Assembly: GCA_973895155.1 (NCBI GenBank)
Contig: OZ316892.1
Span: 30,667,328-30,731,327, forward strand
Direction: 5' to 3'
DNA: 64,000 nt
DNA from: Marsupella aquatica
Taxonomy: Eukaryota; Plantae; Marchantiophyta
Shown piece after piece: positions 1-29,700 of the stretch. The notes beneath the pieces were generated by a model. That model did no database searches. It was not told where the DNA came from and saw only the letters and a program-made list of their open reading frames with translations. Made by a program: the position numbers and the translations under genes. Each line of letters starts with the position of its first letter. Within the stretch, counting starts at the first letter, position 1.

Positions 1-35
1 CCGTCCATCTGTACTATGTTTTTAGATCGTAGCAG

Positions 36-6629: not shown

Positions 6630-6933
6630 ATTAAACCGTATCTTCCTTAATACACCTCCGTTTCCCGAGTGTCTTATATCGATTTTACTCGCCTTGACCA
6701 GATCTTTCCAATGCTCTTTACAGATCCAGATTTGGTGACATATTGAAAGAGATATGGTCGTCGACCACCCGCGACATAGCTTTTATTTCCCTACTCTTAA
6801 CGCCATGATTGCCCTTATTCTTGCCATCTTGCTAATTGTTATGCAATATCAATAGCTACTCCTTGCATACAGCAACCTACTTAATCAGATTACAAAATAA
6901 GGACCATGTCATTGGCGTCACACCATCCAAATG

Positions 6934-8499
6934 GTGGACAGGGATCATCCCTATCCAAAAGCCGGACAGGGATCATCCCCATCCAAACGGTGGACAGACA
7001 TCATTCTTATCCAAACAGCACATAGGGATGATCCCTATCCAAACAGCTAACAGGGATGACCCTTGTACGGACAGTTAACCTATACACACTAATTTAATGT
7101 TTGACCAAAGAAAGGTTGGATTGAGATGATCCCAATTGTGAGTTGGGCTGGATACCCCAACCTTAAGTAACTTAGATAATTATACAATTCCTCCTAAATT
7201 TGATACCAATGGAATATTCTATAATTAAGTTGAAAGTTACCTGTAATGGAAACGATTCTTGAACACAAAACTCACTTAGTTTATGTTGCCAAACCAAGTA
7301 ATAAAATACTTTGTTGAAGGGGTAGTTATCAGTAAGCTGGTAAACTAAATGCTTCAGGGGTGTGGAAGAAATTGAAACTAGATGTTCTGTCTAGAAAACA
7401 AGAGTGGCTCAATGGGGCTCCGTAATGAATGGACCTGGTTGAGAGACTGAATGAAAATCTAGAAATGAAAATACCAAATGAGGACCAGCCAGACCAGCCC
7501 AAGTATCTTATACCATTTGTTCAAGATCGCTCTTATGGATAAGGCGATGCGTGATCAGCCTTAAGCAACGACGAAGTTTAGGGTCGAGTGGATGAGGTTA
7601 GGGTTTGCCTCGCACGGCTGTCTTGCCTCGCCTCGCACCTCGGCCTCACCTTGGAGAGGGGGGGGGTAAAGGAGGCAAGAGGTCCCACTTGGGCCTCATT
7701 CTTCTTCCCTCCTCCTCTTCTTCGCTCCTCCGCTTTTGCGCCTCCGCTCTCCTCCGCTCCTCCGCCTCATTCGCTTCCAATCTCCCTAGGCCCCACTCCA
7801 CCTCCGCCTTCACACTAGAGTTTCTGCGCTAGCCACCACGTTACTTGCCCTAGATCTAACGCTCTGTGATCCTCCACGTGTCCATACGGCCACGTGTCAT
7901 AATATGGATCCATCTAGACCTATTCATGTATCTTTGGTCGTTGAGCCAACAGAGGAGATAGACCTCTCCTCCATTGAGGATGTGATAGACACGACCCTCG
8001 AGGATTCCAGAGCCTTCCAATTGCTCAATCCAAGTGAGTATCTCAGTAACAAGTTGAATATTTGTGTAGTGGACAGAGATCATCTCTGTCCAATTGGATA
8101 GAGATGATCCCTGTCCAAGTAGAGTCCAAGTAGAATATAGTGATCTTTATTAGGAATTGGATAGAGATGATCTCTGTCCAAACTGAGGATAGAGATGATC
8201 TCTGTCCAAACTGAGGACAAAGATCATCCCTGTCCAATTGGATATGGATCATCTATTATTTTCCAAAATGACGATAGAGGATGTCCAACCAGACGATCAA
8301 AACTGTCATATTAGAGGATGCTGAGGATCTTTATTTGGAATTGGATAGAGATGATCCCTATCCAAGTAGAGGATAGAGATCATCCCTGTCCAATTCCTAA
8401 TAAAGTTTGTTAGTATCCTCTGATCGAACAGAGATGATCTTTATTAGGAATTGGACAGAGATCATCCCTGTCCAATTGGATAGGGATCATCTCTACCCA
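6934..8499. repeat. Palindrome family A cluster, consensus TGGAYAGRGAT-N-ATCYCTRTCCA (23 bp)
   Basis: About 14 copies here, e.g. perfect TGGACAGAGATCATCTCTGTCCA at ~8070; more at 10185-10442, ~24108 and ~24910. Confidence 0.9.
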
Positions 8500-8559
8500 A
8501 ACTGTGAGAGAACCTCATCTTTGTCGATTACAAAATTAAGATTTTCCAAACTAATATGC

Positions 8560-11500
8560 ATGGATGGGACTATTGCAGGGAGCGATCTAAATGGATTGAA
8601 ACCAGCAATTTCAAAATCAGATTGCTCCGAGGGAGTCTTGTTGGAGCAGAGCAAACAAGATTTTTGTTGGGGCCTTGAGTTCTCTCGAGTTGATTTTGAT
8701 TTCCTTAGCACGTCAAAGAAATGGGATCCCATTTTGTGCATAAAGGTTAGAACAGGAGATCAAGAGACTCTTGTACTCGGACCTGTAGTCTTCATTGGAA
8801 TTGAAGGAAGAGGGTTTGTTTCCGTCATTCTTGAGCTCCATGAAAGGATACGATGGGTTAAGCTACATCTACCATCAAAGGCGTATTCTTCAGAGTTCAA
8901 TGTTGAGTGGTCTGCTGTTGGAGAACTTGGCGTGTTAGCAATGGGCTTTTTCCCTAAGTTGTATTCAACTCAAAAGGTGATTGCTGGAGTGAAGGGGATT
9001 CTTCCACTTGACATCATGTATGGGTTTCAATATGTGAAGCTGAATATCCATAAACACCAAGGGAATTATACATTTCCGGTGACATGGATTTTAAATAATT
9101 TGCTTGACAAGGCAGGATTCCTATCTTTGGAATCAGGTGTTTGCCTTGACAAGAAAATTGCATTTGCGGAGGAGTTTGCGATGGATAATGCAAAAAAGTG
9201 GGTAGAATCATTACCCAAGCCTACAAATGTTGCACCAGTAGCGGTGAACGAGCTTCCAGTAGTTGCTAACAAAGAAGTTCCCAAACCTAGAAAAATTTCT
9301 CAAGAGACAACAACAGGGATTGCAGGAACAACGGCTGGGACAAGCACCAAACAAGTGGTTGGGAAGCGAAGACTAAGAGAGAGGAAGGAGCGCAAGAAAT
9401 TTGAGACATTGCCGAAGGAACCCGCGAAGAAGCCAGTAGCGAAGAAACAAAAAATTGACAAGTCTGTTGTGCAGTCAACCCCTACGGACGTACAGATGCT
9501 CCCAGAAGATGAGGGAGACAAACTTGACGCCCCTGAGGAGAAGAAGGTCTTAGAAGGAAATGATGTTCTCCAGAGAATAGAGCAGTACTATACTTTTGGG
9601 ATAAATGAAATGTTTTCTATTCCTGTGGAGAAAATTATGCCTGCACCTGCAAGATTATGTTACAGGATGCTCAGTAGTACCCATGTGAAGCACATAGCTG
9701 AATCCATGGTCAAAAATCCTGGACATGATCCTCACGTCGCAGACCTGCTTCCTTACAGTCTGAAGCTTAGAAAGTTGCTCCATTTTGACAGCACGGAGAA
9801 CGACCACAAAGACTTTCTTGCAGGAGTGAAGAAAGGCAAGATTGGTTTCTTTGCCATCAGTGGGCAACATTCGGCTAGGGCGGCCAAGTGGGTTCTTGAA
9901 TGGGCTAAAACTGATGCCAAGCTGACAGTGTTGGCAAAAAAGTTAAAATACAAGAAGTCTAGATTATTGTCAGACCTTACACCATCGGCTGTATTGGTTG
10001 AGCACTCAATGAGATCAAATGCCATCAATTCGACGATGGTGTTTCAATCGTGCTTCAAAGATACAATTGTTCATGCAAGGAAACAATTCCTTGAATGCAG
10101 AGCACCAAGAAAGCCAAAGCACGGGGACAACAAGTCAAACGCCCAAGAGAGTCAAAAATTTCAGGTGAGAAACATTTTTCTTGTTTGGACAGAGATGGTC
10201 TCTGTCCAAGAGTGTGACTGTCCGTTACATTGATTTTAGTTCAATATGTTTTTGGTTATGACTTGGATGGAGATGGTCTCTGTCCTAGAGTGTGATCGTC
10301 CATTCCAGAGATTTCTCTTCCTTTTACTTTTGGTTATGACTTGGATGGAGATGGTCTCTGTCCTAGAGTGTGATCGTCCATTCCAGAGATTTCTCTTCCT
10401 TTTACTTTTGGTTATGACTTGGATGGAGATGATCTCTGTCCAACAAGCAAGTGATAGTTTGTTGTCAAATCTCATTGATTGTAGATAACTTATTTTTGAT
10501 TGTAGGATTATTTGGCATTGGCAAGGATGACCATGGGGAGAAAGGACTTGAAAAATGTATATTGGTTGCTTTTTGCCGAGAATGATCTTTTCGAGCTCTG
10601 GCGGTTAGTATGCCAAATGTGGATTGATGGACATCTTCCTGATGGAGCTGGTACATAGGGAAACAAAAGGTCCGAAAAGGGTATAACGGTCGCAATGTTT
10701 CGTTGTTTTGATGGTGAAATCTCAAATAGAGATTTGACCAGAATTTTGAACAAGGTGAAGTCAGGTCAGGTTTTATTGAAGAAGGATCCGACAAATAAGT
10801 CAGATGTTCCAGCAATGGAGGAATTTGCAAAGGAGGTGAAGATATTGATCAAACTGAAGTCTCTTATTGGAGATTACTACTTCAAGAAGGATCCAAAAAA
10901 CTTCCCAGCAGATAGTGATTGGGTTAAAGTAATTGAGGTCCTCCCATTGTTAGGTGCCGAGTCGGAGTTGAACAGGTGCCGTAGAGCGGCTGGTGAAGTA
11001 TGGTTGACAAATTTATTGAAGTCTAATCATACAAAGGAGAGTGAGATATTGCCAATGACATTGGTGATGCGTCTAGATGATATTTACTATCAGAAGTTTG
11101 GCGGTGGGACAAGTTCTTGGACCCAACCGTGGGTCATATTTTTTAGTAATTAACAACCTAATGAAGACAGTGGATCCGGAGTCGCTGGAAGAACAATCTC
11201 CAACATGCCCTCTTGCAATTGTTGATTTCAGCCGACTTCAACAGAAGGAGTGGACCGAAGCAAAGATTTTGGTACTCTTCCAATACACAGTAGAGCTACC
11301 ACAAAATCCCACCATTGTTGTGATGATAATTGTCCATCCGGGTTACCTTGTACTGAATGTCCTAAGCGCCCTTCGTAAATTAGGACATTCAAAAACTCTA
11401 ACTATTCACATTGAGTATGGGAGTTATTCTCGAGATGATCAACCTCACCCTCATGACGGGTATAGCGACGGAGACAGGAAACAGGTAAACAGGTAAACAG

Positions 11501-12670
11501 GAATTTTTTTCCTGTTTTTAATATGCTGTTACTAGGAAAAAATCACTGTTACCAGGAAAAATGACAATTTAAAAATGTCTCCAAAAACATGTTATTTCCA
11601 AAAAAAATTAACAATACAACATTTTTGGCTAGCTTTGGGCGCTACTATTAGCAGCGCCGGGCGCTAGCAAAAAAAACTGGTCGACCGAATTTTTATTTTT
11701 ATTTTCTCCTAAAAAAAAATATTCAAAAACAAATTCCACCCATTTTCTTGTTACCCATTTTCTTTCCTATTACCAGTTTCTGTTATTTAAATCTTGTTTC
11801 CTATTTGCTGTCTTTTGTAAACACCTCCTCATGACTCATGTTGGAAGGGAGGAATAGAAGAAGTTATCTTTGCGGGAATTTCTTGCGAAGAGAACGTCAG
11901 CTGGGATGAAGTGTTCAAGCCCAACCAGATGAAGCCAAAATGGGTGTACGGTGAAAAGGATATTGATTTCGTGGTTGAGAAGGTCAAGGGAAAGGGAAAG
12001 GCAAAGACGAGGAGTCATTGCATGAAGATCTAAGAAATATGATGACCCCAAAAGAGGCGGCAATACTTCTGCACATGGCACCTCGATTTGAGACTATCGG
12101 CGCTCGGGGTGGGTGGGTGAATCCTCACGCCAAACCCACACGGATATCCAAAAGATCATCCAAACACTATCCGAGCCAGGGGATTTGATTCTTGACTTTT
12201 TCTCTGGCGGTCAAGTCATGAAGGCATCCATTTTTTCTCAATGTGAATGTTTTGTTTATTGTGACTCTCAACATGAGAGACATTTTGTGGAAGCATACAC
12301 TTTGTTCCTTTGTGAGAAGGTTCCCACCATCAAAGATCGTTATGATCACTATGTCGGTGGAAGTTCTAGACATTGGGAACCCTCTTCTGCCGCTGTTGCT
12401 ATTGAGGATGAATCAGATGGTGATCAAGAAGATGGAACTGACCAATCAGTCAAAGACGATGGGCCATCGGAGGGGGCATACGTGAAGAATTTGGATGACC
12501 AAGTTGGCAAGGGTGAAAATATTGACCTTGTTGAAGACGATATGATTGTTGGATCTGCACCTTGCAGTTCACCAATTACAGATGTTGCCCCCATGAGCCC
12601 CAAGGGTATGATAGCCATGATAGAAAACAAAAAACAGAAAACCTGTTACCAGGGGTTTATTTTCTGTTAA
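8560..12670 (+). pseudogene. ParB/Srx-like + N4/N6 DNA methyltransferase-like fusion gene 1 (disrupted, spliced)
   Basis: IPVEKIMPAP..YRMLSSTHVKHIAESM..FAISGQHSARA is ParB-like; IQKIIQTLSEPGDLILDFFSGG is MTase motif X/I-like. Intron 10165-10505, in-frame TAG at ~10656, frameshift at ~11140, second intron from ~11485. Confidence 0.65.
10250..10442. repeat. 78-bp intronic tandem repeat (~2.5 copies), each unit carrying a family A palindrome variant
   Basis: TTTTGGTTATGACTTGGATGGAGATGGTCTCTGTCC... repeats with period 78. Confidence 0.9.
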
Positions 12671-13316
12671 CAGGGAAATTGTACCTGTTACCAGTAAGCT
12701 TGTCCCTGTTACCAGTTTTGCCTGAACCATAACGTGCATATCCACCACTCTAAGGTGCATATCCACCACTCTAATGGCATAATTTTTTGGGGGGCAATAA
12801 AGTTTAAAACAAACAATTATTTTGTGCCATCCGATGGATGAAGTGTACTATCAATCCTCCATTGACACAACAATTTATTGTAGAAGATAAAAAACATGGT
12901 ATTAGGAGTGTGCCTAAAGAAACATTCATGCAAATCAATCTATTTTCATCGCCAAATAGTGACCCTTAGAGTGGGACCCACCATAGCACATGTCAATCGT
13001 GGAGTCCAAATCAACCCAATCTAAAGGAGTTGATTAAATGGACCTTGTAACGTCACAAACAAATGACAAATCACATCCTCGAGGCTTTGAAGACAGTAGA
13101 CAATTTAATCAACTTACACATTTTAAATAAAACAAGAGGTCATTCTTCCACAATGCACGTACATAATGAAGCAATGAATATCCGGTTTCCTAGAACCAGC
13201 GCCCGACGCTAACCAACAAAGTCTCAATAAAACAACTAAAATATCCGTTGGAAAAAGACAAAATAGGGAATAACCGTTATATTGAACGATAACCTATTGG
13301 GCAGTTTTGATCTCTC

Positions 13317-16300
13317 TCATAAGCCATTCAAGTTCTGCCTCTCCAGCACAAGCCTGACTTCGCCTAAAGTCAAAATAGGTTGGCTACAAAGACTCGACTC
13401 CTCAATCTCAAGTTTGAAAACATTTATGTACACCCAGTATAGATGTTTGCAAGGCATGTACGACTTGCCACGCGAATGTCGGAGGAAGAAGTCTTCACAA
13501 GAGCAAGCGGGGAAGATACAAATTTGGACAAAGTATGTGCTTGGTGATCGATGGTTCTCATGGGTTCAAAATGAAATTGCTTTCCAAAAGCATTTCCGGT
13601 CTGAACATTCCATTCCCCATCCAAACTCATCACTTCTTGTCGTGCAGACTCCATTCGCTTCGTGTGACCCACAGTGAGATTAGACCGAGGCCTTGAGTTC
13701 CTCCCATTCCGACTACCAAGTCGGAGATTCAGCTCCAAAAACCTTATTGTTTCTGGGAACACGTTAACATTTATCCTGAGGTCAAAAGCAGATGGCGCAG
13801 ATCGACTCAATCTTGTTGTTCGCGCTAAGACAAGTCCTTGCTCTTCCAGGAATGTAATTTCAGAAGGAGACAGGCTCGTACCCTTCAGAACAGGCAAAAT
13901 GTCAGGAAAAGGAGGAAGCTTCTGAACACCACGACGCGGATGACTCTTGTAACACGCTTGGTTCGGGCAAAACCAAATCATTTTGGAGATGGGTTCGCCC
14001 CTGAAGAGACGATGGCCCTTCACGACAATTCCGACAACACCTTCAGACAAATGGAAGCCAACCTTCTTGATACGATTTCGACACTCATCGCGATCCGAAC
14101 TCCCATTCAGTGTACCATTGCATTGCAGACCTGCTCCATACTTTGATGTCCGTCGCAACTGCCACTGCCCCGAAGGGACATCCTTCTCTAGCACAATCAT
14201 GCGTGGAAGTTGATTCTGAAGTGCTGCTGGGGCACTGAGCGGAGGTTTTGAGGATCTTGTTGTTCGGGTTGTTTGAGGAGTATAGTCCAGTGAATCAGTA
14301 TCACTCTCTGATGTGACCATACCTGAGAGATTCACCGCCTTTGTGACAGGATGATCAGAACTTGAGGGAATAGAAGAAAAGTCAGTTCTGTTCAGGTTCT
14401 TCCTTTTCAAACCACGAGTATTTGGTGTGGTTATTAGAACGGTGTCATGCCGATGGGAATCTTGTGGAGAGACAGTCCCAGTTGCATGTCCCTTCCTCTT
14501 CATTGACTTCGTCATTATATCTCCATTCAGGGAGTACTTCTTTCCAAATCGAATTTTGCTGCGTTAGATAGAAGCATATTAGTCGCTTCTTCAAACAATC
14601 TTGGCGAACCTGCTTGATTGGCGGAACGGAACACCAATTCCCATATAGTTGGCCCCTTCCCCCGGTTCAAGCCTTTACGGTATGCACTGTATCCGGCAAC
14701 TTGAGACAGAGCACGGTTTTGGTCAACTTCGCAAGCTTCATAAAGACCGACCTTTTTCTTTGTAGCCAAGGCTTTCATGGACGCATGCCTTGATTCTGAT
14801 CCTGTACAGTTGGGGATCAAGGCACCTTCCTCAGCGCTTTTGCTCTGCCATACGAAAATGTCAACCGTAAGTAGTATTCTATTACCAGCGCCCGGCGTTG
14901 GCAACATAAATATGTAGAACAGGCCTGAAATACAATTTCAATGTTTAATACTGAATTCTAACTACATATTGGCTTCAATTTCTTGTACTACTTGTTTTGA
15001 CGTGTATGGAGAAAATAACCAGCGCCTGGCGCTAATATGAAGTTGATGAACATTACAGTCTAGATAGATGGATGCCTTACCACTCGAATAAAATTGCCCC
15101 ACTGGCGCCAGCGAACAACCCACCAAGATATCCAGCTTTGCAGCATCTTTAGCTTTCCGGGGACACAGTTTCCTGATTGCCACCACACAACAATCTCTCG
15201 GGACACCCGGTATGCTGCCACAAATGATGGAGCATTTCTCAGTTTCTCCCAAAGTCTCCGATGCTCCGATTGACATTCTTCCAGTACTCCTTCCTTGGAA
15301 TGACGATGAAAAGATTGATAAAAGTGAAATGCATCAGAGCGCTCCCTCTCCGGGTCCGGGTGTCCACCAAAAAAACATTTCGCACTGCATTCCATCCAGC
15401 TTGTGCATTGTCGGCCATAAATCCTTGGATGACAACCTCCTGAAGTTCATTTTCTTTGCAAACCTCAATCATCACTCTCCATGCCTTTTCAAAAGACTCA
15501 GTGTCTTCACCTTTCAACTCGCATGTGAAAATTGTACACAGTGCACGGAAATTGTGGTCGTAGACGTGTGCGCTGAAAGTAAACCAATCCGTGGTGACAC
15601 GCTGCATCACATCAAAACTTACCCAGGCTCCTTCGAGTCTTCCACCCGGTTGCATCTGCCTCAAAAGATCCACACCGGAACCGTGACCTTTCACGGTCAT
15701 TTTAAAGATGTGAGGCCTATCGTTTTGACATCCCTGACCTAGAAGCAAATACTTATGGAGAAATGACACATGAATCCTCCTCTGCATTTGCGAGAGAAAA
15801 TCTAATTCACCCCGACCTTTTTGGTCTATCCTAACGCTCCGACAAAGAGATGCAAACTTCTGCGGAGTGGAAAGGACCATCAGAGACTTCCATATTTCAG
15901 TTTCTTCAATATCGACCATGTCGTCAACATGTTCGCAGAGAGATTTCACTAAGGACCCTGTAGCAGAATTCAAGATCCCTGCCGGTTTTGACAGAGGATT
16001 GGCTTCATGTTTTTTTTAATTAGATCCTTAGCTATCTTCTCCGCACTCCTACAGAAGGTTTTTCTACCTGGATGGTTGTGCTCACCTATATGAATTGCCA
16101 GGCGGGACATATGACTACATGTTTCCGCATCAAGTAATACTTGGGGGTACATGTAAAACAAACGGGCAGGGGAGTACTTCACACAAAAAGGAATCTGTTC
16201 GCATAATGACAAACAACACCTCCCTCTTCGATGAAAGATCCCACAACATACTGACCACTGAGCTTTGGAGTACCCTGCCATGCCTTAGCATTTGCCTTCT

Positions 16301-17018
16301 TCTTCCTTTGGAAATAGTCGTAGGACTTGTTCCTGCATTCAATGAATCCCGTACAAGTAACCTTCCCAAACTGCCAAAGGTTTTTAGGATGAACAGTTGC
16401 AGTTGTTGGAAATATGCGTGTCCAAATGTAACAATCTTTGGCACGATCCATGTCCCTAAGCCTAGAGCCTTTAGAGAGCATCTTATCAATGGGCGGCAAC
16501 TCAAACACGACGTTACCATTGTACTTAGTTGGCAGACAGGACACTTGTTCATGCCTGAAATCACCCGTTGATATGAACCGTGACAACTCACTATGATCAG
16601 TTGATTTGAGTAACGTATCCATCGCACTACGCCGGTACACGACCTCCAACTGCTTAGAGCTTCCCGGAGTCTCAGCTTTCACGACAGCAAGGAGCGGGCT
16701 TTTCTTCTTCGACGGTGGACTTAGAGTACGATCTCCATCCTCACTTGAAGAAATCTCAACCACATCACATGGAACCGGCGGGGAACTGGACAGTCCTGCA
16801 TGCTGTCTTAAACGAACCGAGTACGAGATCCCTGCGTAGAGATGCCAAAACCGTTCACCGTCATCGACATTGAACGTTGCAGCATCCTCAATATCATCAA
16901 TGGATTCGAGCTCTCGAACAATGGCCTCAATGTCATTCATCTTCAAATCAAATCTCCCGCAGAGATACCTCTCCCGGACCTGCTTGTACGTATCTTCCAT
17001 GGGGACGGGGATAGTCAC
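13317..17018 (-). pseudogene. Mutator-like transposase with GCM-type N-terminal Zn domain, DDE core and C-terminal SWIM finger (frameshifted)
   Basis: GCM-like: CTGFIECRN...RLAIHIGEHNHP. Core: SFD...FMADNAQAGWNAVRNVF...SDAFH...ESRHAS. My translation of 13530-13420 gives PACSCEDF..PCKHLYWV (SWIM). Probable intron ~14845-15080; several frameshifts and stops. Confidence 0.8.
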
Positions 17019-17980
17019 AATATCTTCAGAACCAAATCAAGAAAGAACGATAGACCGAGACATGGTGAACAAAAACAAAAACCGAGGGCTATAGCGTTTG
17101 AAAGAAGAAAATTTCATGGTATTGTTCAGCTTATATCTGTCGAACCTGGGAATTTGACGTTAACCAATCCGTTTGTATACAACATAAAACATTGACGATG
17201 GAGGATCCGTTGGCACCATAAATGATTTTTGTCGTTTTTCCCCGAGAAGTTCGGATGTCAGACACAAACATATTGCTAAAAAGATCACCAACCTTACTTA
17301 AACAGACCATAAGATATGACAAGGTATTGTCAAATTTTAGTAGCGCCTGGCGCTAACTAAAATACGCCACTAAAAATGTGTCTGAAATCTCGACATTCCA
17401 AACTAGCGCCCGGCGCTAGTATAGAATAAATTCCCTGAAAATGAACATTATGACCACATAATTGGGAATAAATGGTGCCTTCAAAGGATGGTTTTGATGG
17501 ATTATGGATGATAAATGAACATTTATACTAGCGTCGGGCGCTAGTATTACATTTGAGAAATATTTCTCCGTAAACGATGTACTGAAGGATACTTTAATAA
17601 AATATGGGGGTGGAAAGGCCAAAATTTATGTCATAGCTCCTTCAAAAAAGACCTCTAAATTTCTTCCAGTTTATACTAGCGCTGGGCGCTATTATAAGCA
17701 TACTCTAAATTGTTCACCTTTATGGTCATCATTAATGCTAGCGCCCGGCGCTAGTATTGATATGATGTTAGGAAATGTCTTTAACGGTAACATTCAACGG
17801 TAACTTATGACTTCCGTGTGTGTTACGCATCTTCTACCGTTTGATTTTGGTAATTAAACCTTCCGTATACAGACGTTGGAAACCGCCAAACATCAGAGCT
17901 AATGGCTTTCCTCTAGGTTATGTCATCCTCCCGCTAGAATATATTACACGTTCAGAGATGATTATAGTTCCATAATTTCA

Positions 17981-20900
17981 TTGTACGATAGTTCGTACGC
18001 TTCTAGAAGGAAGACGATGGAGGTATTCCCCTCTTCTTCCAGAGGGTATAGTGCGGTTCCTGACCAGGAGCGAGCTTATTCTGAATCTTCGCAGTCTTTG
18101 TTTACTGGTTCAGTCTATACACGTCGTGTAACTCGTTCCTCAAAGTTGTTGCCGCTCACTTCTGTCAGCGGTGTTTTGGGTCCAAATCCTTTGCGAAGAA
18201 AGATGGACAACGTAGACACAATTGCGATCCAGGATGTTGCGGATTGCGCGCTTGCTGAGACTGATCTCATTTCGAAACATGTCATGTCTTTTGGAAAGGA
18301 TTCTCGTGGATTTGACAAGGAGCCGCCTCGAATCCCTCTGTGTCGATTGGTTCACATGGAGGTGGTTCGTACTCTGCAGAAAAACAGCTCTTCCATCGAG
18401 AAGCTGAAAGACTCTTTTCGTAGTATGGGTTACAACTCTTCGATAGGTTGCGTTTCTATGTGCAGCCAACGGATGAGAACGGAATTGTTCTGACCTGTAC
18501 CTAGGACATTTGTGATTCATGGGATCCAATATGGCAATTGGAGAACAAGAAGTTTGAGGCTGAATGCGAGGCTGACCCGGATTTTTTTGTCTTGAAGGAT
18601 AAGATGTTCTCTATATTCGATGGAAATCACAGGCTGTACTCCTGGACGCTTGTAACAGAGGAGAACCCGGACAATCCAAAATATCATCCTCGTGTGCTCT
18701 GTACAATATTTAAAGGAGACAAGGGATCTCTCATTGAAATTGAGGCAGCTATGCACACCGTGAATCAGTAAGTTCTCATGATTTCCAGTTCTTTCCTTAA
18801 ATCTTGCGAGTGTTGTATTTACTAGCGCTCGGCGCTGCTTATACATGAATTGTTTTTCATTGACTCTTACTCTCAATGTTTGTTCGTGTAGGCTTGGCCA
18901 AGCAGTTGTAGAGCCTTCCTGGATCCTGGATGTGGACAGAATCAAACAAATTCTGGCGCATGACCTTGAGTATTACAGTAAACTAATTGACCCAGGTAAT
19001 TTCAAGAAGTTTGAAAGCATTCGGCTGAAAACTCGGAAGGGGTCATGGTATACGAAGAAGATGCCACAAGAAGCACTTGTTTACATTCTTTGTGAGAATA
19101 AGATAAAGTCGTACTCGCATCAATTCAAACTCGACATGGAGGCAGCGGAGGCTCAAGGGAGTCCATGGTCGGCGGACAAGATTTCAAAATGGCATGCGGC
19201 CATGATGAAAGACGCAACCAAAGATTGGGCAGTGAAGTCTTCAAAAATTATGCCCTTATTAAGTCCTGAATTTGAAGATTTCCTCAGTACATGTGCAGAA
19301 ATGTACTGTCACAGAGAGAAACAAGAGAGAGAAGAAGCCTGACACCGTTGTATGTACGATGGACCGCGCACGATTGTTCACCGCTGTTTCTGCTCTAGAC
19401 CCAAAGTTACGAAGCACTTTACTTGTGGCACATTGCAATCCTGAGCTGCGGAGACAGTTTTTTCACCCAGCAAGTGTTAACGATGATCCAGTCAAACAGT
19501 GGTGCCACACTTGGATCACTTGGAATAGTGTGGAGGGAATTGCTGCTGGCATGTTACATTCATGTCTACGTGAAGTTGAGCAAACCATGCCCGCGAATAG
19601 ATTGGAAGAGTGGAATTGTAGTTCGTTTGATGATCTAGTTCAGTTTGTTACAAATGAATTCAAGAGATTTGGTGATTCCGTGAAGAATAAGTTCTTTCAC
19701 ACTATGTGGCCTTCAAAGTACCCTGACAAAGAAGATTACACCCAAAGAAACCAGAAGCGAGCGAAGAGGTTTGTGTATAGGTTCTACATGCACATGGAGG
19801 TAACCAAACCTGATTACTTCTGGGCATATCCTGCAGCTTTTATGAAGTGGATTTCAATAAGTGAAGATGATGCCTTGGCTGATTTGTACTCTATGTACCC
19901 CACGGAGGGCATATTTCCTCCGAGACCAATGACAGAATGGGAGAGAACTCACTGCCCCTGGTATCTAGATACAGATAGATGGGATTCTCCTTTTGATCAA
20001 AGGGAAAAAGATGCCTTCCATAAGCTTTCAAAGTCTTAGATGCCAGCAAAACTTGTGTCCGACATGAAGCAGGGTCTACTTGACAATGTAGACAAGTCTG
20101 CCACAAACTTGCAAACTATCTGTGAAACAACTGTTGTGCATGTGGACCGGAGTCGCAAACCTCGCGCGAAAGCCAAAGCAGAGCTAGCAGCACCGACCGA
20201 GTCTACTAAATCTGGAAAGAAGAGTAAGTATTGCTATCCATGATTTTGCCAGCGCCAGGCGCTGGCAAAAAATATTCTGTTGAGGGTTGTTCTCTTTCTT
20301 GGTTATTAGGCTTCGGTTGCGACTTAAGTGAATTGCATTTGGTTAGCGCCAGGCGCTAGCTTCTTTCAATACTTTAAAAGTACTTATTCTAACTACGAGT
20401 TGGTTATATTTTAGGAGGGAGGAAGTCTAATACGGTGGGAACGGGAGATACAAAAAAGGATGCTACACCTGAAGTTTCCGAGGCAAACACGGGAGCTCGA
20501 TCGGACCCCATTACTCCAGTCGACAAAGGGAAGGTTATAGTTCCTATCGACGCCACGAGTACCAGGAAGAAACAAAAGAGAGCTATCGAAGGTGGACAAT
20601 CTTTAAGGGAGAGTGTTATAGCTTCTGGTTTCCAACGTGAAGTTGGAAACTTCAAAAAAACTGTGTCTCGCCATTGCATGGTTGAGACAAGCCTTTCTGA
20701 ATTTTTTGACTCGACGTTCAACAAGGAGGAGAAGCCCGAGTGGGTTAGTGATGTGGAGAAATGGGGAAAAGACCTCGTTAAGTTGGGATTTAAAGAGAAG
20801 GGAGTTGTTCGGGGGGGAAAAGTAAGATCGTTTGGAGTGGATGCCGACTTCATTTACCTACCGACCGGGTTCAAACCATCTATCATTGATAAGAAGGTTC

Positions 20901-21691
20901 CTAAATGGAACATTCCAGATCACTCAATGGCTAGATCTTTTTTCAAATCCACGGATCCATTTTTATCAGATGATGGGTTCCTTGTAATTCTACACAATGG
21001 GGAGTACGATCCCATGTCGCAAGTCATTGCTGCCTGTCAGGAGTCAAGGAAATTTCAGTGTATATGCTCGCATAATGTTGTGATGTATGACCCAATGTAT
21101 GCGGCAAAGACAGACCGAGAGATGTTTACCCTCAGGCTCGACATATTTGGCCGAATTAATGGGAAATGTAAAATTCCCAAAGACCCCAAATTTTGGCCGC
21201 TGTCCATCAGTGAGGACCCTTCGGTTACCAATTTGATCGGACTCTCTTCGCTCAAATCAGATCCATTCCCGCAAATGGAGTTTGCTGGAAATGCTCGTCT
21301 GTCTATGGGTTTTATGCAATCTGTTATAGAGCTTGTCACACGGCCTCGTGATATTTTTATGGATTGGACTGCTGGGGCTGGAAGCTCTTACATTGCTGGC
21401 GACTTCTCTGGACGATTTGTACTCGGGATAGAACACCGGAAAGAATTTATTGAAACCGCTTCAAAGGTTTTCATGGATTTGTTGTCTCCCAAAGAGATTG
21501 CAGTGTTACCTCCACCTGTTCCTACTGCCGACAGAAAAAAGAGAGATAAGCTTCGGTCGGTTCTCAATTTTGATTCTGATGATGAATCGAGTGAAGGTGG
21601 AGAGGAACAAGGTACAAGAAACTCCGAGGACGAAAAGGGAGAGCGTCGTGCAACTGCAGATGAAACCGATAGTGATGACTCTTCCGAGTAA
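17981..21691 (+). pseudogene. ParB/Srx-like + beta-class N4/N6 DNA methyltransferase-like fusion gene 2 (disrupted, spliced)
   Basis: RIPLCRLVHMEVVR..IEKLKDSFRSMGY..IFDGNHRLYSW contains the ParB GxxR signature. The C-terminus has FLSDDGFLVILH...VIELVTRPRDIFMDWTAGAGSSYIAGDFSGRFVLGIE (SAM motif after the catalytic region, i.e. beta order). Introns ~18768-18891 and ~20224-20414; frameshifts ~18450 and ~19330; TAG at 20037. Confidence 0.75.
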
Positions 21692-22379
21692 TGTTCATAA
21701 ACTCGTAAGCTTCTTTCTCCATTCCCGTCAATTCATAACATTTCTTTTGTTGTTTTGGGGAAAGGCGCCTTACAAAATGGACTTTGTTATATCAGGTCAG
21801 AGTGGAATGCAAGGAGACGATTCAAACTGCGGAGGAAGATCGCGAGACACAACGTAGAAACATCGGAAAAACCGTTTGTTCTTCCCTCCTATGCAGAGAA
21901 AGCCGCAAGGAAAGCAGAAAGTGCAAGGACACTTTGCTGGGAAAACAAAGGTCTTCGGTTACGAAGGGGTGTTGACCAAAAGTTCATTAAACATCCTTAT
22001 GTTGATGACTTCTCCCGCAGCCAGTACGTAGATGATGAGGCTGTGTCCACGGACAGATCCCAGAGTACAGATTCTGGTTCCGACTCAGAATCTTCATAAC
22101 CGTGAGAAGTAGTGGGTAGTTGAGGCTAAATCTTTTAGCAGCACCCGACGCTTGTAACATCTGTATTATTTCCCTCTGCTGAGGGTCCTTTTAAATTGTT
22201 GATTTCTCTCTACTTGTTGATTACTTTTGACTTCTGTTCTTTACAAGCGTCTGGCGCTCGCCAAATGGAATCTCTAAATGGTCGTTTAGTCTTTGTCATT
22301 TCCTGTCAACGGTCATCATCATTGGATACCAACTACCATTTGGATTGTGTTCTTTAGTCAGTCGTCGGAAAGTCGTTTG

Positions 22380-22752
22380 GGACCATAGTTTCGGGACGAT
22401 GATTCCATAGTTTAGGGACCGGGCGGAAGGGACGACTATAGTTTCAGTTTAGGTTTGTTCGGGACAACGAGAGTTGGGGACGTCGATAGTTGAGGACGAC
22501 GATAGTTGAGGACGACGATAGTTGAGGACGACGATAGAACGGGATGATAGAACGGGACAATAGAACGGGAGGGGAGACTTTGTTTCGGGAGGACAATAGA
22601 ACGTGATGATAGAACGGGACGATAGTTCGTTTGGGAAGACTTTGTTTCGGGAAGACGATAGAACGGGACGTTAGAGCAGGGCGATAGAACGGGACAATAC
22701 CTGTTACCAAGGCGAAGATAGTTTCCGGAGGCAATAGAACGGGACGATGATA
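22380..22752. repeat. Degenerate 13-16 bp minisatellite (GATAGAACGGGAC / GATAGTTGAGGACGAC)
   Basis: Directly visible tandem units. Confidence 0.9.
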
Positions 22753-22905
22753 GTTTGATGGTCATTTCGGAACGGTAGTGTACGCGGACCTTTATCTGGC
22801 GTCTTAGTCTTCGCGGACCTTTCTTTGACCTTTGTCGGCTATAGCACTCACGGACGACGTTCTTACGGGAGGAGAGGTTATATTTTAGATCGGGATCTTT
22901 GAAAC

Positions 22906-23367
22906 ATGCCGAGTCAATATGAGCCAATGGATTGGGAGGCAGCTTTTCGTCCTTCTCGTGTGCGTCCGGAAGAGAGCCATTTCAGCTCTTTTGAATCGCG
23001 GATGGAAACTGAAGAAACTGAAACTTCCACTTTTTGGAACCGTCATGCTCTCCCGTATGATGAGGCTATTAGTCCTGGAGAGAAGAACATCCCTTGGATT
23101 GTCGATTCCCCTACGCCTCCGTTCTCTAGTCGGTTTTCGTCTCACCCGGGAGTTCTTGTTGATGGGGTACTCCCAATCGATCGAAGAGTACAAGAAATGT
23201 TCGGGCGAGTTGATTTTAAGGACAATAATATTCCTATTGAACATTTTACAAGGGCTGTTCGTCGAGGACCTTCAAAGGGATACTTTCGTTTGCGTGGTCT
23301 CGGCTTCAAGAAAGATCGGCGGAGAGAAGCAGCAGGAGTGGATGATGATTGCAACTCGGAAAGCTAG
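22906..23367 (+). CDS. Hypothetical 153-aa ORF
   Basis: ATG-initiated intact ORF between the minisatellite and family B palindromes; no motif recognised. Confidence 0.3.
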   Translation: MPSQYEPMDWEAAFRPSRVRPEESHFSSFESRMETEETETSTFWNRHALPYDEAISPGEKNIPWIVDSPTPPFSSRFSSHPGVLVDGVLPIDRRVQEMFGRVDFKDNNIPIEHFTRAVRRGPSKGYFRLRGLGFKKDRRREAAGVDDDCNSES

Positions 23368-25574
23368 ATGGAAATTTCATTTTGCTGATCGCTTTAAGCT
23401 AGCGCCGGGCGCTGCTAAAGTTTTCCGGATTTTGTGGCATTGAAGTTGACCTCAGCTCTGGCGTTAGAGTTTTCCCGGTTGTCTACTATTTAGGTTTTGG
23501 CTAGCGCCGGGCGCTATTGAAACGACAACGGATTTTGTGGGAGGGAATGGATCTTGACTATGTTGTCTGTGTTTGGACGCATCTTGTCTCCAAGAAACGA
23601 CTAGTTTTCTAGTTAGTTTTTGGCTAGCGCCGAGCGCTGTTCATGTATTAGTCGAAAACCTCCAACGGTGTCGACTGTGACTTCATGGATGGGATTTTTA
23701 GGCCAGATTGTTGATGTTGATAACTGCATTTTGTATCACTTAAGCCGAGCGCGTTTTCTATTTTGCGATAATATATGCGAATGTTTTTTCCGGCCTTTCT
23801 TTTCTACTTGTATTTGTCTTGGATTTTGTGTATCTCAATTGGCAATCGTCTTTTATGTTTCAAAAAATTGTTTCCGTGTTGTTCTTTTATTTATCACGAG
23901 GGTTTGGTGGTTTTGTTTTCTATTCTTGTACTTTCAAATGGAGATTTTGAGACCTTTTTTTAAGATCATTGTTCACGACCATCCAAACACTGTTCACTGG
24001 TAACAGCTCCTTTTAACTGGTACCAGAATCTGTTTCCTGTTATTGTTATCTGTTTGCTGTCGTTTGTAAATTCCCCGGCCCCAACAAGGGCCAGTATGAT
24101 GATAACTTGGATAGAGATGGTCTCCATCCACAAGTGCCTGGACAAGAGATGGAAGTTGATACTTTTGAAAAACTTTCTTCAAACAACCTTCTCAATCAAG
24201 GTGCGGAGAGGCATGGTGAGTCCAATGAACTCAACACATTGGGATTGAGACCACAGCCCATCCAAATAGCTGACATTCCCATGAATGAAGCAAGTGCATC
24301 CACGACTGCTGACAACCAGGCAGGTGCTTCAATTTGTCCCGATACACTCTTTTCCGCTTCTGATGACAAATTGGTGTTTGTTTGATCACAATCAAAAAGT
24401 CCCGTTATCCTTCCACTCTCAAAAAAGAAAGGGAAGAGAGTAGGATCAACGGGATATAAGTCACTTGAATATGATTGTCGATGTTACGTGTGGAAAAGTG
24501 GACCCGATGTAGGAACTGAAGTTGCATTGGATGCTGCTCAATCAATTTTGAACAATGACTTGTACAAAAAGCACAAGAAAGATCCAACTTATAGAAGTGG
24601 AGAATTGGGATTGATAACTCCGGTTTGGTTTGCACCTTATTGGGTAGAGGAGAGTACCTCCGATGTCAATTATGAGATCCAACAAGAACTCGGTGATGAT
24701 ATCTTGATTGATGAATATGGATCGCATTGTTAGCCAAGGTCTAGATTGAGCAATGTGACCTTATCAATTTGATATAATATAGTCTGTATAATTATACTTC
24801 AAGTTTAACAATTAGGGCATCAGTATCAATATCCATCTCCTCTTTACGGTTTCTCAATGAATCTGATCAGTATGCAGATATATTTTCTTTGTGGTTGGCC
24901 ACTTGTGTTGGATTGACAGAGATGATATCTATCCAAACTTCAAATGTGGTTTTATCTCTAAGATTGGTATTTGTTGCACTTGCAGAACCAAGACCTTGTT
25001 CCATCAGGTGGATTGCATGATTGAGGACTACCAAAGGAGGCAAAAAGTCTCCAGTCCTTTCACTAATCCAAAGGACTGTCAACGGCCAAGATTGGCACAT
25101 CTAAAGTCAAAAAGGACTTAAACAAATCAAATGCGTATAAGACACATTCATTAGTATTTCAGCTCCCGAGGTAACCCCTTTCTTGTCGCAACTATAATTT
25201 ATGAGTGAAGGACAACCGGTTCTCTAGGAGAGTGCTGGCGCTATTAGTTCTGCGTGGAGGACTTTTCAAAAACAAGGAGTCAAAGTCCTTTGGGGAAACT
25301 CATTTTTTGTCCCGACATGTAATTTACAGTTGGACAACTAGTTCTGTGGGAGAATGTCGTCGGCGCTACTAGTTCCGCAGGGAATTTTCAAAATCTAGGA
25401 GTGAGAGTCCTTCTCACTTAGGCGCGAGCTACAATTTGTTCAGAAAGTAGCGAAGCCGAGCGCAAAGGTCCATACTTAGCCTCGTGAAGCACAAGATGGA
25501 TGCCTCTGTGAGAATTCATTCAAGAGCAGTCGTGCAATGATGTGAGATTCAAGATGTTCTAATTTGTGTTGCCT

Positions 25575-26570
25575 TCAAAGCATGGGGAATGAGCTCATGC
25601 AAAAAGGAGGGTAGGGTTTACCTAAAGCTCTGCCAAACAGCCAATCAAGCTGCAGATTTAATTTGCGTCTGAAGCTTCACGGATGACATTCAAATCCGAG
25701 CATGAGCAAGGGGAATGAGCGCAAAAAGGAGGGCAATGAAGCTGCAAGTTTTATTAGGGTCTGAAGCATTCCTGATGATGACGGGAACTTTGGGAAAGAG
25801 TGCGAAGGAGGTCTGAAGAGGATCAAAGGGTTGAACATTGACTCAAATCACTCACTAGCAGCCATCATCGGCAGAATTGAGGTAAATATATGCCTCAATG
25901 CTTTTGTTTTCGAAGAGGAGATTTTTCTCTGCACTGAAGAAGCAAGGACGTTGGACAGAGTATGTGATGATTGACAAAATCAGAGTAGCTTAAATTTTGA
26001 AAGGCTTTGTTTGTTAACAAGAGTTCAAGTTGCGTTAAAGTCTGGAATGACCAACAGTGGCCTTTAAAATACCTTATCTGAGCTTTGTGGAACACAAAAT
26101 AGGTAGCAACTCTGGAAAGTTCTATGATTGGGTTAAATTGATTGAAAGAGCAAGATCCGTGGTATGATGTGAGATCCATGCTCTGATAAATCCGTGTTGC
26201 CTTCAGAGCATGGGGAATGAGTGCAAAAAGGAGGTTCAATGAAGCTGCAGATTTATTAGGGTCTGAAGCTTTGCTGCCAACGTACATTTGAATCCGAATA
26301 GGAACTTCAAGAAAGAGCATGGAGAGGAAGGTCAAGCAGTCAATCAAATCAGTATTGGCAGCTATCGTGAACAGAATTGAGGTACATTAAATTAAATTGA
26401 TTTGCTTTTGTTTTGAAGAGGAGAAGTTGCTTTGGACTGGAGAAGCAAGGACACTAGCTAGACAGAGTATTTGATGATCGACACAATTTAGGGAGTTCCC
26501 AGTTTGAAAGGCTTTTCTCAAGGCTTTTCTTTTTCAAGAGGAGAAGTTGCATTGGACTTGATCAGGAAGG
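25575..26570. repeat. Diverged local segmental duplications upstream of the transposase
   Basis: GCATGGGGAATGAG..CAAAAAGGAGG..AAGCTGCA at ~25580, 25705 and 26207; CAGAATTGAGGTA..GAAGAGGAGA..AGAAGCAAGGAC..GACAGAGTAT at ~25872 and ~26372. Confidence 0.75.
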
Positions 26571-26742
26571 GTAGCAAGTCTAGAGATTAAATGTGATGAT
26601 TTTGTGAGGTATGTTCTAAGTCATGAATTGAAATTGGATCCCTGGGACGTAGGTGAATTTGATTCTATGAGGGTGGGCGACCTTTGATTGGTAAAGGAAG
26701 TTGAACACCCCGACGTATTTGATGCTCCATGATTAGGCTGAA

Positions 26743-29700
26743 ATGGCTACTCTTAATCAGGTATCCGATGCCCTAGCAAGAGAGAGGTTGGAGAAGCGAA
26801 GGTTGGCAAATCGCAAATCCAAGTTGAAAAGACAAGAGCAAATAGCAAACGGTCAGCACATAGGTGGTCAACAGGCAGTTTGCACTGATGAAATGATTCA
26901 TGAAACACAACAACAGTGCAATCTCATGATGGAGAGTGCTAAGCAGCAATGTCAAGATTTAGTGATTGATGGCAACCGAAGGCAAAGAGAGTTATTGGCT
27001 GCTGGGCAATCAGAGGCAATGAGAATTACTAGTGAGGCTCATGAAGCTGCCGCTGTGATGTTGCGTACAGCCCGGGAAGAAAGTGAAAATCTCAAGGAGG
27101 CTGCGCATTCATGCCATTTTGAGATTTTAGAGTCTAGGCGGAGGACCCTAAGGGCAAGCATTCCAACACAGGTCAACGCCCACATTCGAATGCCAAGGCA
27201 GAGCACCCCAACTGCTTGCACTCAAGTGCATGCAGCCCACCTTCATCCACTAAATGAAGGTGAGCACGATAATTGTGGTTGTGATGACCAATTGCAGGAA
27301 GGTTCCATTCTTGAGAAGAGGAGGAAGGATGCAGACAGGAAGAGATTTGAGTACCAAAGGAGCAAGCGCTCTGTTCCAGAAGACTGTGTAACTCCCAACC
27401 GAAAGAGAAGGTGCATTACAATTGTGTTATCAGATATAGTTAGGTACATTTTGGAGAAGACCGCTACATTCAATGTAGGTGCAAGGAGGGCAGTACTATC
27501 TAGTATCTGGTTGCACAAATACTTGAAGAAGTACCAGCCTACAAGACTAGGTTTGCCTAAAATGGATTGGGCTGTAGCTGCTGCATTATGTGATGTGAGG
27601 AAAACCTTGAGCATAGTGAAGCAAGGGAAGCGCAAAGACCATCTTGCTGCAAAGTACCAAGTTTTGTCAGCACTTGTAGGAAAGACATGTGTAGATAGAA
27701 GGCAGCAGACCTCTCTAGCTCAAGCTTTGGGTATACAACGGCAAAATCTTCATAGGGCATCTAAGATCAGGATGCAGATTGATGAAGATCGTGAAAAAAC
27801 TTATCCTATGGGGGAAAGAAAGGTACGTCGAGATAAGATTTCTGATGAAGTTTGAAAACAGGTGGAACACTTTTGGGAAACCCACACTCGGATTTCTCCA
27901 TGTAAGAACAATGAAGCCAGATTGCGACTAGGGCGGAAAATGTATGAAACACATCAAGTGCACTGGCTGGAGGATACACAGGTGAGAAATTCTCCATGAT
28001 TGATTTGCCACTTTTGATTTTAACTCATAATACGATCTGCAGATGTTGAGAAGTAGGTTTCCTTCATGTGTGCTTTAGCCATTGTGCTCTGCTGTAACCG
28101 CCTAGTTTTTTCTTTTAAGGTAGGATCTCAATAATTTTGTGAGACCTGACGTCCTATATAGCCTAGCAGGAAGGACTCTGTTCCAGGAAAATTCCTTCAG
28201 GACTGACTATCTAGGCCTTCAGGAAGCACTGTTGAATCCTTGTCAAGTGAAGTCTGGCATGAGAAACGAGTTGAGTCCTTGGCAAAGTACTATCTAGTTA
28301 ATCACTAAGGACTATATAGTCCTTGACTCAGGAGTATGGATAGCAGTGAAGTCCTTAGTCAAAGGACTTTACTCCTTAGCCAAGGGCTTCACTAAGCGTC
28401 AAGGACTATATAGTCCTTATCAAAGGACTTTACTACTTTTTAAAGGACTTTGTAAAGGACTTTACTACTTTGTAAAGGACTATAGTCCTTTCTAAAGGAC
28501 TTAACTCCTTTTTGAAGGACTATTAATAGTCCTTACTCAAGGACTTTACTACTTTGTAAAGGACTATAGTCCTTACTAAAGGACTTTACTACTTTGTAAA
28601 GAACTATAGTCCTTGCTCAAGGACTTTACTCCTTTGTGAAGGACTATTAATAGTCCTTCCTAAAGGACTTTACTACTTCGTAAAGGACTTTAGTCCTTAC
28701 TCAAGGACTTTACTACTTTGTAAAGGACTATAGTCCTTTCTCAAGGACTTCACTCCTTTGTGAAGGACTATTAATAGTCTTTACTAAAGGACTTTACTAC
28801 TTTGTGAAGGACTATAGTCCTTTCTCAAGGACTTTACTCCTTTGTGAAGGACTATTAATAGTCCTTACAAAAGGACTTTACTACTTTGTAAAGGACTATA
28901 GTCCTTCCCCAAGGACTTTACTCCTTTTAACAGGACTACTAATAGTCCTTGGACTTTACTCCTTGGTACGGGCTTTCGTAACTTAGGACTATAGTTCTTA
29001 TTCTTTCAAGAATTGTAGTCCTTTGTAAAGGACTATAGTCCTTACTCAAGTGTTTACTCCTTTGTAAAGGACTATAGTACTTACTTAAGGACTTGACTCC
29101 TTTGTAAAGGACTATAGTCTTTATTCAAGGATTGTAGTCCTTATTGAAGTACTTTACTCCTTTGTCGAGGCCTGTCTTTAGTCCTCATCCGAGGACTATG
29201 TAGTCCTTCGATAAGGACTTTAATCCTTTGTAAAGGACTATAGTCATGGGTTGTGTTACGTCTATAGACTAGTCCTTTGTCAGCGAGTGAAGCGCTTTGA
29301 CCAAATGATTGTAGTACTCCTCCCCGATGGACTTTAGACCTTAAGCTTTGCTGGTAGTCTTCCAATGAGGATTCCAACCCTTGCTGAAGGACTTCAGTCT
29401 AAAAGTAAGTAGTACCCAGATATCTAGGGATTTTTATGGCTGCACATTTGAGGGTGTCTATTTGCTATAGTATTTCTAATAAAACTCTCCTGTATGTTTA
29501 CAGTATCAATTCTATTCAGCATTTCGTGACTGGTGCACAAGGGAGCAGAATGGGGTGTCTGTAGGGATGCGGTCATTCATACACTTCAAGCCATATTATG
29601 TTCGCAAGATGAAGGACCGAAATGTTTGTTGCTGCAAACAACATGTGGAGATGGACTTACTGAAAGAGGCAATTAACAAATTTAGGTGGCACCAGCACAA

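Follow-up and report, generated by a model that had tools for sequence, protein, structure and literature searches.

The 64,000-nucleotide stretch of DNA analysed here, referred to below as the window, comes from the liverwort Marsupella aquatica (assembly GCA_973895155.1, contig OZ316892.1, positions 30,667,328 to 30,731,327 of the forward strand) and contains several transposons nested in one another. One of them, which we call element B, is an 11,472-bp Mutator-like DNA transposon at 12604 to 24075 of the window, and its non-coding DNA carries dispersed copies of a 15-bp palindrome, YAGCGCC-N-GGCGCTR. A first-pass annotation made from the letters alone had pointed to these palindromes as binding sites for an element-encoded protein, in what it took for a single region of ParB-methyltransferase genes.

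The limits of the insertions were mapped with contigs from four of the seven listed public runs, aligned to positions 6101-26000. Contigs of runs X1, X3 and X5 contain the empty site of element B (joints 12591/12595/12598 to 24077/24080), and the element is flanked by a 9-bp target-site duplication (12595 to 12603 on the left and 24076 to 24084 on the right, both plus strand), of which seven of the nine bases are identical. Element B begins with GGG and finishes with CCC; its putative terminal inverted repeats are degenerate, and its two ends align only loosely, over about 90 bp. A non-autonomous relative of 369 bp with B-like ends, the mini-element, lies at 11458 to 11826, as delimited by empty-site joints and end alignments. 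Its 9-bp target duplication is perfect (9/9; 11449-11457 and 11827-11835), and in contigs of X1 and X5 position 11448 is followed directly by 11827, nine letters fitting either side of the joint. An older and more deeply covered gene of a third element, element A, is broken in its last coding part by both insertions. The ends of element B are marked by a 10-bp subterminal word, CTGTTACCAG, with four copies at 12643 to 12715 and two more, at 23997 and 24017; the mini-element has three. At one mismatch or fewer, nine of its 17 matches cluster at the two ends of B and in the mini-element. Judged from their position, these words are likely transposase sites.

The palindrome is far more frequent in the window than chance allows. 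The pattern TAGCGC-NNN-GCGCTA has six exact matches where 0 are expected, and 16 matches at two mismatches or fewer, against a mean of 0.47 in 100 shuffles, none of which reaches 16; the earlier impression of about 17 dispersed palindromes with conserved arms is thus borne out. At three mismatches there are 21 matches, of which we retained 17 and dropped the four without a CC-N-GG core (22672 within element B; 46825, 49247 and 57099 outside it). Searching independently for the 13-mer core AGCGCCNGGCGCT, with no more than two mismatches, also gives 17 matches, all between 11653 and 23638; relative to the retained set it gains 22140 and loses 11630. The half-site consensus from the 17 copies (34 half-sites) is YAGCGCC with an AT-rich outer flank and one variable centre base (G in seven copies, C in five, T in three and A in two). 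Positions 2-5 are almost invariant (A 34/34, G 33/34, C 34/34, G 33/34), and positions 6 and 7 are each C in 30 of the 34 half-sites. In other words, the architecture is 7-1-7 and not 6-3-6, and the variable 3-bp centre of the first-pass annotation shrinks to a single base. Its remark that the sites keep their CpGs in AT-rich surroundings was correct: the flanks have a G+C content of 30%, and the arm CpG has no transition in 34 half-sites (there is one G-to-T change). What is retained in the palindrome is its sequence, beyond mere symmetry. Its outer arm consensus is WTRCYAG.

All 17 core matches lie in element B or the mini-element, which together make up 18.5% of the window; the remaining 52 kb has none. 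The 15 copies in element B all lie outside the coding exons as mapped, the non-coding share of B being 35%. One copy is found downstream of the transposase gene (13197 to 13211), and two in a transposase intron (14886 and 15020; 14886 to 15034). Five lie between the two divergent genes at 17341 to 17753 (17341, 17404, 17529, 17677 and 17739), just where the earlier annotation had placed five copies in a divergent promoter region (17340-17755). The first mapped intron of the accessory gene has one copy (18823 to 18837) and the second has two (20250 and 20344; 20250 to 20358). Past the accessory gene there is a degenerate copy with three mismatches (22245 to 22259), with a weaker one at 22140, and past the third open frame there are three more (23400, 23502 and 23625; 23400 to 23639). 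The mini-element holds the other two (11630 and 11652). The placement in introns and spacers therefore stands for element B, but not for the pair at 11630/11652, which sits within an insertion and not in an intron of the other gene. The absence of copies beyond about 25.4 kb also stands; the last full copy already ends at 23639, and the sites at 25230 and 25355 are partial look-alikes. The clustering is likewise real, but it marks one transposon and its mini-relative, not both ParB-methyltransferase genes. The copies in element B stand singly, at spacings of 62-2321 bp, with no tandem array covering them and none within 430 bp of either end. As a side observation, five of the five asymmetric copies in B (13197, 15020, 18823, 23400 and 23625) have their C-type half pointing away from the central promoter region.

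Some simple origins of such copies can be set aside. The first-pass annotation had named target duplications as a sign of separate miniature inverted-repeat transposable elements; no duplication of 8-11 bp was found at any of the 17 copies (the longest is 5 bp), which rules out single copies as independent elements of this type. Excision scars are ruled out by our own reasoning that scars mirror their own flanks, whereas the copies share one consensus. As to Helitron end hairpins, the copies have no terminal position, and no Helitron gene was seen, although no profile search for one was made. A scan of viral contigs with the palindrome pattern gave five loci with one copy each, which were treated as chance.

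The transposase gene of element B (13424 to 17066, minus strand) encodes a zinc-finger region and a D..D..DxxH..E core, and has five longer relatives with 49-58% identity. In the alignments the residues that we take to be the DDE motifs are D (FDV), D (ADN), DAFH and E (ES.H), with the third acidic residue past an intron (15080-14845) that contains two palindromes; the ends of this intron follow from the sequence and from L001, a metagenomic relative described below. A low-confidence model of one transposase relative, P0090 (mean pLDDT 51), finds the ISCth4 transposase, which is presumably of the IS256/Mutator type, in ranks 1-5 (best E 1.6e-4). Mutator-like elements (MULEs) are defined by a target-site duplication of 8-11 bp (PMC6446971; this and the other published systems are described here as they appear in the accessible parts of the papers). 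Because of its 9-bp duplication and the match of the transposase model to ISCth4, we file element B, on this evidence, in the Mutator superfamily. The Pfam MULE profile matched neither the window frames nor five relatives, and the lineage may be too distant for it. None of 27 candidates in viral contigs was a relative of the transposase.

Divergent from the transposase gene is the accessory gene (18017 to 22099, plus strand), whose predicted exon-intron structure was read from the sequence; its introns at about 18769-18892 and 20227-20415 contain three palindromes. Both genes are frameshifted in the window copy, and other copies in the run contigs differ at those places. The accessory protein consists of a ParB-like domain with the word DGNHR, a helical middle and an N6_N4-methyltransferase-like domain. 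The DGNHR domain has three relatives with 63-78% identity, two of which match PHROG ParB weakly (E 0.054 and 0.27). Its features in the Atlas score 0.96 to DUF3723 clusters and 0.92 to a cluster with 11% ParB_N. The accessory protein thus appears to carry a ParB-like domain, judged for B from motif, Atlas and weak PHROG matches, the fold model coming from the protein of element A. Pfam searches gave no ParB match, the ParB domains matched no PDB sequence, and none of 17 candidates in prokaryote genomes was a B-type domain. The likeness of relative P0091 to fungal DUF3723, which we take to be a common Starship gene, suggests that one ParB-like family may ride many eukaryotic mobile elements.

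The methyltransferase-like domain of B has the S-adenosylmethionine (SAM)-binding motif I near its C terminus (E 1.9e-4 to 5hek/5hfj), and its match to PF01555 (Pfam E 0.0024) lies under the curated cut-off. The catalytic motif (D/N/S)PP(Y/F/W) is absent from the translated frames of both B and A; its position in B probably reads FIYLPTGF. The domain lacks the canonical catalytic motif, and a role in binding SAM or DNA is more likely for it than enzymatic activity. No homologue of this exon was found among 4251 candidates of 237-756 amino acids (aa). A third open frame (22906 to 23367, plus strand, 153 aa), taken from the list of open frames, has no family match. No ParA family member was matched in two sets of 35 and 17 scanned frames, among which was every long frame of B (the window has 119 frames of at least 100 aa), and no other family match, such as an accessory protein of the VANC family, was seen in the frames of B, although a VANC sequence was not compared directly. 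Between the accessory gene and the third frame, at 22440-22750, there is a CpG-rich tandem array with a 13-16 bp unit (GACGATAGAACGG / GGACGACGATAGTTGA).

Elements A and C, nested with B, serve as internal controls. Element A is on the plus strand, and three nested insertions divide it in the window: its left part, with an older, high-copy ParB-methyltransferase gene, extends from 6788 to 12603 and is broken by the mini-element and B; it resumes at 24076 to 25006, and a further part (37994-38978) lies past element C. It also bears a NIF-type phosphatase gene. The true left end of A was not found, and its ends and transposase are absent from the window copy. What had been annotated as a single ParB-methyltransferase region is therefore two different elements, each with its own palindrome. 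That of A is a 25-bp palindrome, also with a 1-bp centre (GGAYAGRGAT-S-ATCYCTRTCC), with 17 copies at 6936-10441, some before the gene and some within introns, and two more past B (24109 and 24914). All 19 are in A DNA, flanking B on both sides, and none is inside B. Both ParB-methyltransferase elements have their own 1-bp-centred palindrome, placed upstream of the gene as well as within its introns.

The ParB-like exon of A has 81 relatives; among ten examined, the four that carry a species name are all from Riccia sorocarpa, and one Riccia protein has the ParB-like and methyltransferase domains in a single chain. The model of the ParB domain of A is a confident one (pLDDT 94) and matches ParB, Noc and KorB (Foldseek best E 1.9e-3); compared with Myxococcus ParB it gives a Z of 9.9 and a root-mean-square deviation of 2.3 over 94 residues. 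The A-type and B-type domains are too distant to align, and their profile comparison is not significant (probability 0.2%); the Box II arginine is kept in the B-type (GNHR) and missing from the A-type (GQHS). In viral contigs the domain of A has one weak match, L007 (E 2e-4 over 44 residues), without the motif.

Element C (25007 to 37989), a 13-kb DNA transposon, is nested in A with a 4-bp duplication, ATCA; there is a loose contig end at 25006. Its genes encode a transposase that we take to be Sola-like, from its DFSENY and SDG..QFK words, and a second protein with a RING-like finger. Element C has yet another palindrome, AAGGACT-NN-AGTCCTT, and all 35 matches lie inside C. Arrays of AAGGACT fill introns at 28.3-29.3 kb and 33.5-34.1 kb, and the same word occurs in the terminal repeat of C. 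The motifs of A and C are partly tandem, unlike those of B. No ParB gene was detectable in element C, and tblastn with 93 proteins gave no match there.

Evidence that the palindrome of B outlives the DNA around it comes from the metagenomic locus L001, the one locus obtained, from 72 candidates, when metagenomes were scanned with the transposase alignment. Its large exon and that of B share 63% identity, and its intron at the same position as the palindrome-bearing intron of B contains three copies of ATTGC-TAGCGCC-GGCGCTA-GCAAT, with the same arms in a 7-0-7 architecture. Neither form, 7-1-7 or 7-0-7, is found complete in the other sequence. Once the motifs are taken out, the introns of B and L001 align with a score of 21 against 21.6 for shuffles, and 176 of 300 shuffles reach it. 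Because the motif is confined to the element, is replaced by different words in its neighbours, and is kept in L001 despite a diverged intron, it is, as far as these comparisons go, a conserved, family-specific cis site. One palindrome of L001 lies at the centre of a 29-bp perfect inverted repeat (1172-1231), a possible trace of the birth of such sites.

The substitutions in the sites also have a pattern. At 17270-17830, the window deviates from the consensus at 17534 and 17683, where many or all of the other copies among the run contigs have the consensus C. For the motif at 17333-17364, the match of some contigs is confined to its immediate surroundings; their flanks have diverged, although a resemblance to those of the window remains. 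The motif variants in this interval are all C>T or G>A changes at positions 6, 7 or 10, with none at the arm CpG. In the window copies, transitions are found at 0 of 68 arm CpG bases versus 8 of 68 bases at positions 6-7 (Fisher p 0.006). In the window, the copy of B is no longer intact, and C-to-T changes are eroding its sites; we read the site as exposed to methylation in silenced copies, with its AGCG part perhaps protected or selected. The ratio of observed to expected CpG (o/e) of the whole element is 0.85 in B, versus 0.47 in A, 0.43 in C, 0.30 in a CACTA element and values within 0.19-0.47 in two long terminal repeat (LTR) elements; in the non-coding DNA of B with the motifs masked it is 0.95.

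The rest of the window should be mentioned briefly. Positions 1-6421 are the end of the CACTA element, with a reverse CACTA terminus at 6421, subterminal GTCAC/GTGAC words and a Transposase_24 fragment. Between it and A, 6422-6787 is rich in AACCCG/CGGGTT and is covered much more deeply by the contigs of X1 and X3 than the rest; it is probably a small element of very high copy number. Three nested Ty3/Gypsy elements occupy 39300-63000. In the element at about 53366-63000 the LTRs show no difference over 300 nucleotides, yet its CpG o/e is 0.2, and the one at about 42600-53300 has a CpG o/e of 0.88.

Designs similar to that of element B have been described in algae. The accessory gene PAG3 of red-algal Plavaka transposons encodes an N-terminal ParB-like domain, lies beside inverted repeats and has been proposed to bind its own element, and homologues of Plavaka accessory genes occur on Mutator elements of Chondrus (Petroll et al., 10.1101/2025.02.11.637652). 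Element B likewise pairs a ParB-like accessory gene with inverted repeats on its transposon, but the ParB domain of PAG3 is fused to a 2-oxoglutarate oxygenase and that of B to the N6_N4-methyltransferase-like domain; the PAG3 repeats are tandem arrays beside the gene, whereas the sites of B stand one by one along 10 kb and occur in the introns of both genes as well; and B is a land-plant-type MULE. Sola1-1_Ec32 of Ectocarpus encodes a fusion of ParB-like and N4/N6 methyltransferase domains on the strand opposite to the transposase, for which self-binding and self-modification were proposed (PMC12477816). Unlike B, it belongs to the Sola superfamily and to a brown alga; the likeness is by description, and the string “palindrom” does not occur in the main text of that paper. 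By these descriptions, element B shows the pattern of PAG3 and Sola1-1_Ec32, i.e., a DNA transposon that contains inverted repeats and encodes a ParB-like domain fused to a nucleic-acid-modifying fold.

The VANDAL elements with VANC are similar in another way: they are MULEs with short or degenerate terminal repeats and family-specific motifs in intronic, intergenic and terminal non-coding DNA, and these motifs differ between families and direct the loss of methylation (PMC5735166). The first-pass analogy to VANDAL/VANC fits, because B is a MULE with degenerate ends. The VANC motifs, however, are 8-9-bp non-palindromic tandem words and those of B single palindromes; anti-silencing has been demonstrated for VANDAL (PMC5735166), whereas for B we infer it, and no VANC-type protein was seen in B. 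Bacterial ParB/parS, Noc, KorB and VirB resemble the present case in the ParB N-terminal fold and the dispersed palindromic sites. The parS site is a 16-bp palindrome without a central spacer. The likeness to it drawn by the first-pass annotation is not supported, since the site of B has 15 bp and a 1-bp centre (that of L001 is 7-0-7) and no ParA was found. The ParB homologue VirB is a loading-and-sliding anti-silencer in Shigella (PMC10770331). Orphan ParB-N6_N4-methyltransferase fusions are common in phages, sulfiredoxin being named as the common eukaryotic member of the ParB fold (10.1101/2025.10.10.680097), and ParB-HTH methyltransferase fusions occur in chlorophytes and chytrids (PMC4738411). 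Taken together, B fits the algal ParB-transposon kind and is neither a ParABS system nor a VANDAL/VANC member, though it may work like either. The design of ParB with inverted repeats was thus already proposed for algal transposons. In the literature searched, which was short of most subscription journals, we found no ParB-like accessory genes or palindromes in land-plant transposons, nor the land-plant MULE setting, the nested controls, the spacer shift or dispersed intronic palindromes of B's kind.

We consider it reasonably probable that the palindrome, a family-specific sequence of one Mutator-like transposon, is bound by the ParB-fold accessory protein of this transposon, which would counter host silencing. 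The ParB-fold protein is favoured as the reader because both elements with a ParB gene carry their own 1-bp-centred palindrome around it, because ParB-family proteins load at palindromes, because B has a separate end word available to the transposase, and because the layout matches the VANC case, with intronic and intergenic motifs that differ by family. The pair of YAGCGCC arms would be read by a two-fold symmetric dimer. Loading would take place at the five sites between the divergent genes, where both genes switch on, and through the intronic and distal sites, 1.1-2.3 kb apart, the protein would reach further along B, possibly by loading and sliding of the ParB type. The bound protein would keep 5-methylcytosine (5mC) off the arm CpG and the DNA around it, or recruit an opposing activity. 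Such anti-silencing is modelled on VANC for VANDAL and on the ParB homologue VirB versus H-NS, and the mini-element would borrow the system of B in trans. The first-pass idea of cognate sites thus survives in that the sites are element-specific, non-coding and kept in L001, and a ParB-like protein is encoded; it had merged two elements.

Several observations weigh against this proposal. Palindrome arrays can arise without ParB, because C has intronic arrays, no detectable ParB gene and a motif overlapping its terminal repeat. A helix-turn-helix after the ParB fold is no more than a possibility: the A model has helices there, but its structural matches span residues 2-158 only. The 1-bp spacer change between 7-1-7 and 7-0-7 is unusual for a rigid dimer. 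Five of the 15 variants listed for 17270-17830 fall within motifs, which make up 13% of the bases, so the sites are not frozen, and a CpG transition is present in one of the six L001 half-sites and in the excluded 22140 copy. The third LTR element, with its CpG o/e of 0.88, equals B in CpG content. Finally, in run X5 the 31-mers at 17732-17762 have a summed depth of more than 24,000 with unrelated flanks, so that in the organism of that run the word is abundant elsewhere, in a very abundant repeat.

The most serious rival, which we nonetheless hold to be rather unlikely, is that the sites are read by the transposase of B itself, as transpososome anchors or for self-activation, the ParB-like gene being unrelated. 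The AtMu1 transposase alone binds and hypomethylates its cognate elements and activates its own family, but its peaks sat at terminal repeats (10.64898/2026.08.24.746577), which is where the palindromes of B are missing. In element C, for which no ParB gene was found, a word of the terminal repeat has multiplied into arrays within introns, and the arm flank WTRCYAG overlaps part of the subterminal word of B, whose subterminal zones are nevertheless filled by that different word. L001 is 2 kb long, and within it the motif is physically linked only to a transposase; the mini-element, too, keeps two palindrome copies. Against this, the palindrome of element A occupies the upstream region and the introns of the ParB-methyltransferase gene itself.

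It is improbable that the palindrome is instead the substrate of an active, element-encoded amino-methyltransferase that writes N4-methylcytosine (4mC) or N6-methyladenine and so marks self DNA. The palindrome core contains CCNGG and often CTAG, words used by bacterial methyltransferases, and B retains a beta-class SAM-binding motif (E 2e-4 to M1.HpyAVI-type DpnA chains). 4mC enzymes do operate in liverwort sperm, but these Marchantia enzymes keep TSPPY (10.1101/2021.02.12.428880), whereas the frames of B and A lack the corresponding motif. Moreover, although the same self-modification idea exists for Sola1-1_Ec32 (PMC12477816), the CCNGG core is precisely the decaying part of the site and has turned into CCGG in L001.

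Still less probable is a small RNA hairpin in introns and untranslated regions, such as a splicing or RNA-binding signal. All nine folded window copies and the L001 copy form the stem, seven of the ten with a z below -2, but folding is expected of any palindrome. The five asymmetric copies in B all read T...G on the presumed sense strand, which permits a U-G pair (p 0.03, one-sided); a sense-strand C-to-T bias can, however, stem from transcription-linked deamination. A spacer change would be harmless to a hairpin, but the arm sequence is invariant without compensating changes, five copies lie between divergent genes, and an Rfam search of 6000-39000 gave no match. We regard with equal doubt the view that the copies are captured sites of host factors, or functionless scars or fragments of tiny mobile elements. 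Depth climbs over the motifs in X1, the deep 31-mers of X5 have unrelated flanks, and the inverted repeat around one L001 copy suggests template-switch origins; on the other side stand the empty 52 kb of the window, the single copies without flanking target duplications, the motif kept in an L001 intron otherwise devoid of similarity, and the different word in each nested element. A true parS or partition role is ruled out, as no ParA was found in the frames scanned and the element is eukaryotic and chromosomal.

Detailed knowledge of how transposons evade DNA methylation is largely confined to VANDAL/VANC, Spm/TnpA and the recent case of AtMu1. Two papers of 2025 propose that ParB-like proteins bind their own transposons, without experiments in their accessible parts, and the window makes this idea directly testable in land plants: one locus offers two ParB-methyltransferase elements with different palindromes and a non-autonomous rider, to which L001 adds a relative with a one-base spacer shift. 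If the protein were a clamp of the cytidine triphosphate type, the ParB switch would act on eukaryotic chromatin. A wider proposal, possible but doubtful at present, is that Mutator elements of land plants run a nucleotide-switched sliding clamp derived from ParB/parS, each family with its own clamp and palindrome (7-1-7, 7-0-7 or 12-1-12), loaded at promoters and introns and spreading over 10 kb against 5mC. If it is true, eukaryotes would have a counterpart of Shigella VirB that is independent of VANC, and long-range anti-silencing would gain a programmable tool.

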